A stretch of 64,000 nucleotides of DNA from Shigella phage ESh17. The DNA lies in the sequence record ON528727; one strand, given 5' to 3'. The notes under the pieces were generated by a model, which had not been told where the DNA came from, did no database searches, and saw only the letters and a program-made list of their open reading frames with translations. The translations under genes were made by a program, and so were the position numbers. This document shows positions 6,911-55,499 of the stretch, in pieces; positions within the stretch are counted from its first letter, which is position 1; each line of letters begins with the position of its first letter.

Positions 6911-7593
6911 TGTTTGATTTTATTATAGATTTTGAAACAATGGGAAGCGGTGAAAAAGCAGCTGTTATTGATTTGGCTGTAATTGCTTTTGACCCTAACC
7001 CAGAAGTTGTTGAAACATTCGATGAACTAGTTTCACGTGGGATTAAAATTAAATTTGACTTAAAAAGTCAAAAAGGACATCGTCTTTTTACTAAAAGTAC
7101 TATCGAATGGTGGAAGAATCAATCTCCTGAAGCTCGAAAAAATATTGCACCGTCCGATGAAGATGTAAGCACTATCGACGGTATTGCGAAATTTAATGAT
7201 TACATCAATGCACATAATATCGATCCTTGGAAATCTCAAGGCTGGTGCCGTGGAATGTCGTTTGATTTTCCAATTTTAGTCGATCTCATTCGTGATGTTC
7301 AACGTCTTAATGGTGTTTCTGAGAATGAACTTGATACGTTTAAGTTAGAACCTTGTAAATTCTGGAATCAGCGTGATATTCGTACTAGAATTGAAGCACT
7401 TCTGCTTGTTCGTGATATGACCACGTGCCCTCTTCCAAAGGGAACTTTAGATGGATTCGTTGCACATGATTCTATTCATGACTGTGCGAAAGACATCCTG
7501 ATGATGAAGTATGCTTTGCGGTATGCTATGGGTCTTGAAGACGCTCCATCAGAGGAAGAATGCGATCCTCTATCTTTTCCAACAAAACGATAA
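6910..7593 (+). CDS. dexA: exonuclease A (DexA)
   Basis: 227 aa; size, position and N-terminus as remembered for T4 DexA. Confidence 0.85.
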   Translation: MFDFIIDFETMGSGEKAAVIDLAVIAFDPNPEVVETFDELVSRGIKIKFDLKSQKGHRLFTKSTIEWWKNQSPEARKNIAPSDEDVSTIDGIAKFNDYINAHNIDPWKSQGWCRGMSFDFPILVDLIRDVQRLNGVSENELDTFKLEPCKFWNQRDIRTRIEALLLVRDMTTCPLPKGTLDGFVAHDSIHDCAKDILMMKYALRYAMGLEDAPSEEECDPLSFPTKR

Positions 7594-11128: not shown

Positions 11129-11180
11129 AGCTTTATGATTACCGGAGTATAATATTCCCGAAACCAAACGAGGATAAGTG

Positions 11181-12998
11181 ATGATTAAGAATGAAATTAA
11201 AATTCTGAGCGATATTGAACATATCAAAAAGCGTAGCGGCATGTACATTGGTTCTTCTGCTAATGAAATGCATGAGCGCTTTCTGTTTGGTAAATGGGAA
11301 AGTGTTCAGTATGTACCTGGTCTTGTTAAGCTTATTGATGAAATTATCGATAACTCAGTAGATGAAGGTATTCGTACTAAGTTTAAATTCGCGAATAAAA
11401 TTAATGTTACTATCAAAAACAATCAAGTAACTGTTGAAGATAACGGTCGTGGTATTCCACAAGCGATGGTTAAAACACCTACTGGTGAAGAAATTCCTGG
11501 TCCTGTTGCCGCCTGGACTATTCCAAAAGCAGGTGGTAATTTCGGTGATGATAAAGAACGCGTCACTGGCGGTATGAACGGTGTTGGTTCTAGTTTAACT
11601 AACATTTTTTCTGTGATGTTTGTCGGTGAAACTGGCGACGGTCAAAATAATATTGTAGTTCGTTGTTCAAATGGCATGGAAAATAAATCATGGGAAACTA
11701 TTCCTGGAAAATGGAAAGGAACTCGTGTTACTTTCATTCCTGATTTTATGTCATTTGAAACTAATGAGCTATCTCAAGTTTATCTTGACATTACATTGGA
11801 TCGTCTCCAGACACTTGCAGTAGTTTATCCTGATATTCAATTTACATTTAATGGTAAAAAGGTTCAAGGTAATTTTAAGAAATATGCACGCCAATATGAT
11901 GAGCATGCTATCGTTCAAGAACAAGAAAATTGTTCTATTGCGGTTGGTCGTTCACCGGATGGTTTTCGTCAATTAACATACGTCAATAACATTCATACTA
12001 AGAATGGTGGCCATCATATTGACTGTGTTATGGATGATATTTGTGAAGACCTTATTCCACAAATCAAACGCAAGTTCAAAATTGATGTAACTAAAGCACG
12101 TGTTAAAGAATGTTTGACTATCGTCATGTTTGTTCGTGATATGAAAAACATGCGATTTGATTCTCAGACTAAAGAGCGTTTGACTTCTCCATTTGGTGAA
12201 ATTCGTAGTCATATTCAGCTTGATGCTAAAAAGATTTCACGCGCTATTTTAAACAATGAAGCAATTTTAATGCCAATTATTGAAGCTGCTTTGGCTCGTA
12301 AATTGGCGGCAGAAAAAGCAGCAGAAACTAAAGCAGCTAAAAAGGCCTCTAAAGCTAAGGTTCATAAACATATTAAAGCGAATCTTTGTGGTAAAGATGC
12401 TGATACTACTCTTTTCTTGACTGAAGGTGATTCGGCTATTGGATATCTCATTGATGTTCGTGATAAAGAACTTCATGGTGGTTATCCATTACGTGGTAAA
12501 GTTCTCAACAGTTGGGGTATGTCTTATGCAGATATGCTTAAAAACAAAGAACTATTTGATATTTGCGCAATCACTGGATTAGTTCTCGGTGAAAAAGCTG
12601 AAAACTTGAATTATCATAATATCGCTATTATGACTGATGCTGACCATGATGGTCTAGGAAGCATTTATCCTTCTCTGCTCGGATTTTTTAGTAATTGGCC
12701 AGAATTGTTTGAGCAAGGAAGAATTCGCTTTGTCAAAACTCCTGTAATCATCGCTCAGGTCGGTAAAAAACAAGAATGGTTTTATACAGTCGCTGAATAT
12801 GAGAGTGCTAAAGATGCTCTACCTAAACATAGCATCCGTTATATTAAGGGACTTGGCTCTTTGGAAAAATCTGAATATCGTGAGATGATTCAAAACCCAG
12901 TATATGATGTTGTTAAACTTCCTGAGAACTGGAAAGAGCTTTTTGAAATGCTCATGGGAGATAATGCTGATCTTCGTAAAGAATGGATGAGCCAGTAG
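11181..12998 (+). CDS. 39: DNA topoisomerase II large subunit, uninterrupted gp39+gp60 fusion
   Basis: 605 aa from ATG 11181; GHKL ATPase N-terminus and gp60-type C-terminus ...AIMTDADHDGLGSIYPSLLG...REWMSQ in one ORF. Confidence 0.95.
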   Translation: MIKNEIKILSDIEHIKKRSGMYIGSSANEMHERFLFGKWESVQYVPGLVKLIDEIIDNSVDEGIRTKFKFANKINVTIKNNQVTVEDNGRGIPQAMVKTPTGEEIPGPVAAWTIPKAGGNFGDDKERVTGGMNGVGSSLTNIFSVMFVGETGDGQNNIVVRCSNGMENKSWETIPGKWKGTRVTFIPDFMSFETNELSQVYLDITLDRLQTLAVVYPDIQFTFNGKKVQGNFKKYARQYDEHAIVQEQENCSIAVGRSPDGFRQLTYVNNIHTKNGGHHIDCVMDDICEDLIPQIKRKFKIDVTKARVKECLTIVMFVRDMKNMRFDSQTKERLTSPFGEIRSHIQLDAKKISRAILNNEAILMPIIEAALARKLAAEKAAETKAAKKASKAKVHKHIKANLCGKDADTTLFLTEGDSAIGYLIDVRDKELHGGYPLRGKVLNSWGMSYADMLKNKELFDICAITGLVLGEKAENLNYHNIAIMTDADHDGLGSIYPSLLGFFSNWPELFEQGRIRFVKTPVIIAQVGKKQEWFYTVAEYESAKDALPKHSIRYIKGLGSLEKSEYREMIQNPVYDVVKLPENWKELFEMLMGDNADLRKEWMSQ

Positions 12999-53788: not shown

Positions 53789-53985
53789 TGAAATTCTTTT
53801 TAGGTCAAACTGTTGAATTAAAGGGAGTTGGTATACCTGGATTAATTTCTAAGGTTCTACCTCCATTTAAATGGAGTGGTATTCAAATAAAAGAGGCTTA
53901 TATTGTTTCCTGGGTAGATGGAAATGAAGACCTTCGTATGGGCGATGAATTATCTCCTATTTACGGATTAAAGGAATTAGTATGA
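53788..53985 (+). CDS. hypothetical protein (65 aa)
   Basis: ORF track. Confidence 0.45.
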   Translation: MKFFLGQTVELKGVGIPGLISKVLPPFKWSGIQIKEAYIVSWVDGNEDLRMGDELSPIYGLKELV

Positions 53986-54188
53986 ATATAATTAATAAGA
54001 TTTTTGGAATTCAGTACATTAAGGTCACATATAAAGTAACAGATAAAAATCCATATACTGATGAACACGAAGAACCACGAGTTGAGTCTATTATATTAGA
54101 AAAGGACCCTAACTGGCCAGTTGAATTTCGTCTTCCTTGCTATGGTCATTGGGCTGATGTTGAAATTATAAGCATTGAAAATGTCTGA
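53982..54188 (+). CDS. hypothetical protein (68 aa)
   Basis: ORF track. Confidence 0.45.
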   Translation: MNIINKIFGIQYIKVTYKVTDKNPYTDEHEEPRVESIILEKDPNWPVEFRLPCYGHWADVEIISIENV

Positions 54189-54639
54189 GTTAGAGATTAG
54201 AAGCAATTTTAGGTGGCCATCATGTGCATTAAGTAATTTCGCCCAATGGCCTTTCGTTATGGATGGTATTCAATTTGGAGGTCTTGAAGGATTCCTCCAA
54301 GGGTGCAAGGTGAAAAATGTTGAACAACAACGTCGTATATTTGGGTTATCCGGGCTTGCCGCCCAACAAGCTGGAAGGTCTTATGCTAGAGCTCAGGACC
54401 GTGGGACCCTCTTCTGGCTTGGAGTTCCATTTTCAAGATACTCCCCAGCGTGGAAAGAATTATACACAAATGCATATTTTGAAGCAGCGATCCAAAATAG
54501 GGGCTTTCGCGATGCATTACAAGCCTCGAAAGGAAAAGTTTTGAAGCACAGCATGGCTAGTGGTCTAACAAAAGATGATACAATACTAACCGAAGCTGAA
54601 TTTATTGATGTGTTAAACCTATTAAGAGACTCTCTATGA
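54181..54639 (+). CDS. NADAR (YbiA/DUF1768)-like protein
   Basis: N-terminal LSNF...PF..DG..F...E.F.Q..K pattern typical of NADAR. Confidence 0.6.
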   Translation: MSELEIRSNFRWPSCALSNFAQWPFVMDGIQFGGLEGFLQGCKVKNVEQQRRIFGLSGLAAQQAGRSYARAQDRGTLFWLGVPFSRYSPAWKELYTNAYFEAAIQNRGFRDALQASKGKVLKHSMASGLTKDDTILTEAEFIDVLNLLRDSL

Positions 54640-55499
54640 AGCCTACTATTTTAACTGATATTGATGGAGTATGTTTAAGCTGGCAATCAGGTCTTCCTTA
54701 TTTTGCTCAGAAATATAATCTTCCGTTAGAACATATTTTAAAAATGATCCAAGATGAGAAATTTATTTCTCCAGGTAAACTATTTAATTGTGATGAAGAA
54801 CTTGGCGTCAAGTTAATTGAAAAATACAATCGTTCAGATTTTATTCGTTACTTGTCTCCGTATAAAGATGCTCTGTGTGTAATTAACAAATTAAAAGAAG
54901 ATTATAATTTTGTAGCTGTTACAGCATTGGGTGATTCTATTGACGCTCTGTTGAATCGTCAATTTAATTTGAATGCTCTTTTTCCTGGTGCCTTCTCAGA
55001 AGTAATGATGTGTGGTCATGATTCTTCAAAAGAAGAGTTATTCAAAAAGGCAAAAGAGAAATATAACGTAATTTGTTATATTGACGATCTTGCTCACCAC
55101 TGCGATCATGCGAGTGAAATATTAAATGTTCCGGTTTATTGGATGGCTCGAGGAGAGCGTGACAATATTCCAAAAACTGCGCAGCGAGTTTATACATGGA
55201 ATGATGTAGAAAATAAGCTTTTTTCACCGAAGGAAAATAAAGAAAGTTTTGATAGTGAAAAAGCTATAAAAGATGTAATTGAGAAGATGGTTAAAAACGA
55301 TTCTTTTCGTTGGAACACTACCTGGAGAACTCCTGGATTTAATCCGTATAATCCATATTATACACATCCATATAATCCATATTATACACACCCGTATCAT
55401 ATGAATCCATTCCATACGTGGAGTTATACTAAGCCTGGTGATGCAGGGTATTTTAATAGATTTACTAGTGGTGATAATATTTTCCAAGGAGCATTCTAA
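54636..55499 (+). CDS. HAD-superfamily phosphatase-like protein with C-terminal Pro/Tyr/His repeat
   Basis: Motif I ILTDIDGVC; repeated NPYYTHPY units. Confidence 0.6.
   Translation: MKPTILTDIDGVCLSWQSGLPYFAQKYNLPLEHILKMIQDEKFISPGKLFNCDEELGVKLIEKYNRSDFIRYLSPYKDALCVINKLKEDYNFVAVTALGDSIDALLNRQFNLNALFPGAFSEVMMCGHDSSKEELFKKAKEKYNVICYIDDLAHHCDHASEILNVPVYWMARGERDNIPKTAQRVYTWNDVENKLFSPKENKESFDSEKAIKDVIEKMVKNDSFRWNTTWRTPGFNPYNPYYTHPYNPYYTHPYHMNPFHTWSYTKPGDAGYFNRFTSGDNIFQGAF
55341..55410 (+). repeat. imperfect 24-27 nt tandem repeat inside 54636..55499
   Basis: aatccatattatacacatccatat / aatccatattatacacacccgtatcat. Confidence 0.6.

Follow-up and report, generated by a model that had tools for sequence, protein, structure and literature searches.

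The DNA analysed here, a stretch of 64,000 bp from Shigella phage ESh17 that we refer to as the window, is collinear with phage T4 (NC_000866) and represents its reverse complement. The genes follow one another in the T4 order 30.6, 30.5, 30.4, 30.3, 30.2, 30.1, 30 (ligase), alt.1, alt and alt.-3, and the T4 comparison places genes 54 and 48 after alt.-3 on the opposite strand. The locus considered here is gene 30.3, now renamed adfN for anti-DarT factor NADAR (PMC11825919), and it is listed in Table 1 together with its neighbours, an embedded reading frame, and the genes for four ADP-ribosyltransferases.

Table 1. Positions of adfN, its neighbours and the ADP-ribosyltransferase genes in the window
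Feature	Coordinates	Strand	Basis and remarks
modB, 207 aa	2687..3310	+	phrog_832; 96% identical to T4 ModB; ~51 kb upstream of adfN
modA, 200 aa	3307..3909	+	phrog_832; 97% identical to T4 ModA; ~50 kb upstream of adfN
gene 30.4, 68 aa, function unknown	53982..54188	+	phrog_2042; stop overlaps adfN start
adfN (T4 gene 30.3), putative phage-type NADAR ADP-ribosylglycohydrolase	54181..54639	+	PF08010, T4 identity, fold; E36/K43 catalytic, H123 family-specific, helix 138-151
30.3' ORF, 75 codons, +1 frame within adfN	54317..54544	+	annotated in T4; intact in window
gene 30.2, 287 aa, HAD-like	54636..55499	+	phrog_420 E=3e-89; 90% identical to T4 gp30.2
alt, 698 aa	57463..59559	+	phrog_802 E=1e-272; PF03496 E=2e-37; 70% identical to T4 Alt
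second full-length Alt paralogue, 685 aa	59563..61620	+	phrog_802 E=5e-256; PF03496 E=2e-20

Genes of the gene 30 region and the transferases

The adfN coordinates are exact, with the open reading frame running from an ATG to a TGA and coding for 152 amino acids. A longest-frame call begins instead at a TTG at 54175, six bases 5' of the ATG, but we prefer the ATG because it agrees with the T4 annotation and reproduces the published numbering of residues E36 and K43. The adfN start overlaps the termination codon of gene 30.4 (ATGTCTGA), and its own termination codon overlaps the start of gene 30.2 (ATGA), such that adfN lies in a tightly packed run of co-oriented genes.

The window protein shares 150 of its 152 residues (99%) with T4 gp30.3 and is 100% identical to a protein of phage vB-Eco-KMB23. 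The two differences from T4, K107R and I125M, are conservative substitutions, and I125M is only two residues away from H123. It resembles T4 AdfN (NP_049816) in its length, in the start and stop overlaps, in the flanking genes, in residues E36, K43 and H123, and in the C-terminal helix. The protein spans all of Pfam family PF08010 (Phage_30_3; profile positions 1-138 of 138) with a score of 234 bits against a cut-off of 36 (E=5.1e-70), and it also matches phrog_652, a PHROGs family of unknown function (E=3.5e-51). At the nucleotide level, the 4.3 kb around adfN match 727 phage records, of which Shigella phage ESh18 is the best at 98.9%; the matches are overwhelmingly to T4-like phages of Escherichia, Shigella and Yersinia.

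The composition of adfN departs from that of its surroundings. Its GC content is 42.5% relative to 35.7% for the window, placing it at the 97.5th percentile of same-size windows, and its GC3 is 33% compared with approximately 22% in the neighbouring genes. A similar departure is seen in comparison with RB69, in which AdfN has 95% amino acid identity and the products of the flanking genes 43-73%, and where 78% of the codons at conserved residues are identical in adfN as against 50-62% in its neighbours. However, gp30.6 is likewise 95% identical to its RB69 counterpart, and 30.4 has 71% identical codons. The conservation of adfN relative to RB69 may reflect recent exchange between T-even genera, or alternatively strong constraint.

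The 30.3' frame embedded within adfN was considered as a genuine overlapping gene and rejected on three grounds: in RB69 and ST2 a stop codon interrupts it, in WG01 it lacks an ATG, and synonymous change within the overlap is no lower than outside it, giving no sign of selection. Relative to T4 it also diverges faster than AdfN does. We conclude that 30.3' is probably not a functional gene.

On the other side of adfN, residues 8-12 of gp30.2 form a HAD-type DIDGV motif, and the protein weakly resembles a polynucleotide-kinase PHROG and has no match in Pfam. Relative to T4, gp30.2 carries a 10-residue insertion (NPYNPYYTHPYNPYYTHPY) in its Pro/Tyr-rich C-terminal region.

A preliminary description of this DNA reported that the window encodes ModA, ModB, Alt and an Alt paralogue, and all four are present, as judged by PHROG matches and identity to T4 proteins. 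Alt, ModA and ModB are arginine-specific transferases. The same description placed adfN alongside these genes, which holds only loosely: four genes separate adfN from alt, which begins 2.8 kb downstream, and modB and modA are about 50 kb upstream. The window phage differs from T4 in having a mosaic Alt and a second intact Alt paralogue. The second paralogue is 41% identical to both the first Alt and T4 Alt, has YR.Q, STS and E-x-E motifs visible in the alignments, and occupies the site at which T4 has the decayed fragments alt.-1 and alt.-2; the window phage thus has intact an ancestral duplicate of which T4 retains only fragments. The first Alt is approximately 99% identical to T4 Alt over its N-terminal 250 residues (1-250) and over its last ~60 residues, whereas identity falls to about 50% in the central region that includes the catalytic domain, a pattern that suggests either recombination or diversifying selection acting on the catalytic part.

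Elsewhere in the window, we note a single 606-aa ORF (11178-12998, + strand) containing GHKL ATPase, gyrase-B, Toprim and TOPRIM_C domains. In T4 the topoisomerase gene is split into genes 39 and 60 with a translational-bypass element; the 606-aa ORF seems to be an unsplit topoisomerase II large subunit in which the T4-type split is absent.

NADAR fold and catalytic residues of AdfN

Assignment of this protein to the NADAR family was originally proposed from an N-terminal LSNF..PF signature. The motif is indeed present, although LSNF and PF are separated by three residues rather than two, and it reads L17-SNF-AQW-PF-VM-DG-IQ-F-GGL-E36-G-F-L-Q-GC-K43 (LSNFAQWPFVMDGIQFGGLEGFLQGCK, residues 17-43). 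With a PF08010 match at E=5e-70 the motif is not a chance resemblance. The window protein alone does not reach the Pfam NADAR family PF08719 in a Pfam scan (hmmscan, E<=1), and a PDB search with the single protein sequence found no NADAR chain, its one candidate (3rjz, E=0.57) being rejected as a chance match. Because the single sequence reaches NADAR in neither Pfam nor the PDB, homologues were collected and a profile was built; 94 were recovered, and 60 full-length sequences with identities down to 35% were aligned.

The relationship to NADAR proteins is readily seen with this larger set. The 60-homologue profile matches E. coli YbiA (2b3w) in the PDB with E=0.006, and does so exactly over the LSNF...E..Q..K motif. 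Seven of the 60 homologues themselves match PF08719, the best with E=1.5e-7, and so provide a bridge between the two families. A profile comparison against NADAR had been suggested at the outset as a check on the assignment, and hhalign of the 60-homologue alignment with YbiA from the K-12 genome gives a probability of 93% (E=2.9e-7).

Structure prediction is in good agreement. AlphaFold2, using the alignment of the 60 homologues, gives a model with a pLDDT of 93.6 and a pTM of 0.88, for which the top three Foldseek matches in the PDB are all NADAR proteins with probabilities of 0.98-1.00: YbiA (2b3w; E=1e-4, TM 0.69), a NADAR of G. lovleyi (8bat), and a NADAR of P. nicotianae with ADP-ribose (8bau). 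All other matches have E>3. E36 and H123 do not vary among the 60 homologues, and K43 is kept in at least 90% of them; both E36 and K43 align with the corresponding YbiA residues in the profile match and in hhalign. In the model H123 comes immediately after the final predicted strand (E120-122). A His where the final strand ends, in place of the Glu of YbiA or the Asp of DarG1, marks the phage NADARs (PMC11125620, PMC11543638), and a phage subgroup with His at this signature position is attributed to earlier bioinformatics by de Souza and Aravind in the account given in PMC11543638. The placement of T4 gp30.3 among the NADARs likewise goes back to earlier bioinformatics, cited in a 2023 paper. 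Profile search, bridging homologues, predicted fold and catalytic residues thus all confirm the family assignment, and the window protein combines the NADAR fold and profile relationship with the catalytic Glu and Lys and the phage-type His.

The closest structural relative, YbiA, shares the PF08719 motif SNFA.WP..VDG....SE..FQ..K with the window protein. It differs in being only ~17-24% identical, in having Glu at the position of H123, and in serving as a housekeeping protein of riboflavin metabolism and swarming. A second informative comparison is with DarG1, the NADAR antitoxin associated with DarT1 (BC4488 subfamily; 8bat of G. lovleyi), which has the same fold (Foldseek probability 0.99) and shares with AdfN the hydrolysis of guanine-linked ADP-ribose and the Glu/Lys catalytic pair. 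However, DarG1 has Asp at the position of AdfN His123 and an N-terminal extension that is absent from the window protein, which in the AlphaFold2 model consists of the 152-aa core only. DarG1 also rescues cells from DarT1, whereas T4 AdfN does not do so outside of a T-even infection. No DarT-like toxin gene is found beside adfN, its neighbours being 30.4 and 30.2. Without the toxin neighbour and without the extension, AdfN is best regarded as an orphan antitoxin-like enzyme and not as a member of the DarG1 family.

AdfN, DarTG1 and the C-terminal helix

Both the observation of AdfN and its favoured role have been published before. The preliminary description raised protection of phage nucleic acid against ADP-ribosylating host defences as one role, and this agrees well with studies of the 99% identical T4 orthologue, which has been shown to neutralise DarTG1 (PMC11825919, PMC11125620 and the HIDEN-SEQ preprint). 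With chimeras from T2 x RB69 and T4 x RB69, Johannesman et al. (Nat Commun 2025; PMC11825919) traced resistance to DarTG1 to gene 30.3, and they found that deletion of adfN renders T4 and T2 sensitive to DarTG1 and that its expression rescues RB69. They describe T4 gp30.3 as a guanine-specific DNA ADP-ribosylglycohydrolase that is both necessary and sufficient against DarTG1; the purified protein strips ADP-ribose from DarT1-modified DNA, and the E36A and K43A substitutions impair rescue, with a partial loss in vivo (PMC11825919). In vitro, T4 gp30.3 hydrolyses guanosine-ADPr and not thymidine-ADPr, and it fails to rescue uninfected cells from DarT1 (Toxins 2024; PMC11125620). In a 2026 paper the T4 NADAR was tested again on guanosine-ADPr, and phage NADARs are absent from that paper's table of enzymes reversing cytidine-ADPr. 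Transposon sequencing (HIDEN-SEQ, 2025 preprint) shows that adfN insertions are lost on a DarTG1 host, where the gene is conditionally essential.

The C-terminus of the protein is of particular interest in regard to RB69. RB69 AdfN is 95% identical to the window protein over residues 1-137 but is frameshifted and ends at T137, and the window allele is full length. The RB69 truncation results from a 1-nt insertion that removes the last 15 residues and leaves the phage DarTG1-sensitive (PMC11825919); the C-terminal helix that this allele lacks is needed for full AdfN activity. Residues 138-152 (EAEFIDVLNLLRDSL) are present in the window protein, and a helix is predicted with high confidence at residues 138-151 in the AlphaFold2 model. 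Since the window allele is full length and every catalytic residue is kept, the phage is predicted to be DarTG1-resistant and its AdfN to be active, unlike those of RB69.

We therefore consider it highly probable (about 95%) that this ORF represents adfN (gene 30.3) as carried by a T4-like Tequatrovirus and encodes a minimal single-domain NADAR-fold N-glycohydrolase that counters DarTG1; its enzymatic activity and counter-defence role are those expected from the 99% identical T4 protein. A likely course of events, drawn by homology to T4, is that infection of a host carrying DarTG1 would release the DarT1 toxin, which would ADP-ribosylate guanine bases of the phage DNA and block its replication. 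AdfN would then cut the bond between ADP-ribose and guanine, with E36 and K43 positioning the ribose and the phosphate and H123 standing in for the Glu or Asp of the cellular NADARs. Removal of the ADP-ribose would restore unmodified DNA and allow replication to go on.

Neighbouring genes and alternative roles

The proximity of adfN to the transferase genes raises the question of whether these form a functional module, and we compared the neighbourhoods of 13 other loci containing a PF08010 gene. The order adfN, 30.2, ligase, Alt is kept together with the gene 30 block in RB69, Morganella phage Rgz1, Acinetobacter phage Melin and a metagenomic T-even contig, and WG01 and ST2 are consistent with this order over their shorter stretches. 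In seven distant loci (two Karamvirus records, Aeromonas phage AS-szw, Rhizobium phage P10VF, Ralstonia phage RSP15 and two metagenomic phages) neither an ADP-ribosyltransferase nor gp30.2 is present within 6-7 kb. We thus reject NADAR-transferase proximity as a conserved functional neighbourhood, as it occurs only within the gene 30 synteny block of the Straboviridae; its absence from the seven distant loci indicates that the closeness of adfN and Alt is inherited synteny and not a pairing of writer and eraser.

The contexts of the distant PF08010 genes are varied. In the two Karamvirus records the gene lies in a tRNA cluster, in Aeromonas phage AS-szw (7001-11509) it is near genes for PRPP synthetase and the NAD-salvage enzyme nicotinamide phosphoribosyltransferase, and in another distant locus (L004, 1-6468) it is near a Pribosyltran gene. 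Different clades may use the PF08010 NADAR in different contexts.

These comparisons bear on the proposal that AdfN reverses or trims the marks placed by Alt, the Alt paralogue, ModA and ModB on host proteins or RNA, and is located near to them for this reason. That adfN and alt belong to one early-gene run, with adfN 2.8 kb upstream, fits such a circuit, as do the recurrence of the gene order in Mosigvirus, Gualtarvirus, the Twarogvirinae phage Melin and the metagenomic T-even contig, and the early expression of T4-like NADARs together with ADP-ribosyltransferases (Iyer et al. 2022). Nonetheless, we regard it as very unlikely. The substrates differ, in that the recorded activities of phage NADARs are on guanine-ADPr in DNA and RNA, with thymidine-ADPr not hydrolysed and cytidine-ADPr unlisted, whereas the targets of Alt, ModA and ModB are host proteins, among them RNA polymerase alpha, S1 and EF-Tu. 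ModA and ModB are encoded 50 kb from adfN, the seven distant loci have no transferase nearby, and adfN is dispensable on E. coli K-12, a DarTG1 host being the sole condition under which a requirement is reported. We found no explicit statement in Schuller et al. (2023) on NADARs and protein-linked (arginine) ADP-ribose, and the case against protein erasure therefore rests on the recorded substrate range and on genetics. The earlier suggestions that the eraser is tied to the neighbouring writers, or that it tunes the modifications made by the phage itself, are thus unsupported; alt is part of the same early-gene run as adfN and is not functionally tied to it.

An alternative of a different kind is that AdfN acts mainly on soluble NAD or ADP-ribose derivatives and not on DNA adducts, with immune signals, riboflavin-pathway N-glycosides resembling the YbiA substrates, and RNA-repair by-products as candidates. 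A preference of phage NADARs for low-molecular-weight ADPr derivatives was put forward by Iyer et al. (2022), YbiA-type NADARs act on riboflavin intermediates, some PF08010 homologues (AS-szw, L004) have the NAD-salvage and PRPP neighbours described above, and the adjoining gp30.2 resembles a HAD phosphatase. However, the T4 protein removes ADP-ribose from DNA, its DarTG1-specific phenotype depends on the catalytic residues, and no soluble substrate is reported for the gp30.3 clade in the literature examined. We consider this very unlikely as the main role, although a secondary activity on small molecules may exist, and repair of DarT1-modified DNA remains the favoured role.

A further consideration is that T4 AdfN rescues non-T-even phages only weakly and uninfected E. 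coli not at all. Full activity therefore seems to need a T-even factor, as was postulated by the original authors. One version is that AdfN requires a phage-encoded partner from the same gene run, for which the HAD-like gp30.2 is a candidate; another is that AdfN also clears collateral ADP-ribosylation of nucleic acids by Alt and the Mod proteins. We view this pair of explanations as improbable. The start of 30.2 overlaps the adfN stop, and the two genes are neighbours in all Straboviridae loci examined in which the gene 30 block is kept (L010, L013-L016 and L018), although this adjacency is kept only within the Straboviridae and the distant homologues have no gp30.2 neighbour. Moreover, adfN is the only gene named in the text of the T4 transposon screen with DarTG1.

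Annotation of adfN homologues in public records has yet to reflect these findings. In a sample of 40 phage records from the 1,510 with an AdfN homologue, nearly all carry the label "hypothetical protein" and one is labelled "putative homing endonuclease"; in the Rhizobium phage P10VF locus the homologue is at 7004-7465. Public annotation is thus behind the functional work on AdfN of 2024-2025. The contribution of the present analysis is one of annotation and not of discovery: the gene can be named adfN, encoding an anti-DarTG1 NADAR ADP-ribosylglycohydrolase, resistance of the window phage to DarTG1, in contrast to RB69, is predictable from its sequence alone, and spreading the gene name would be useful.
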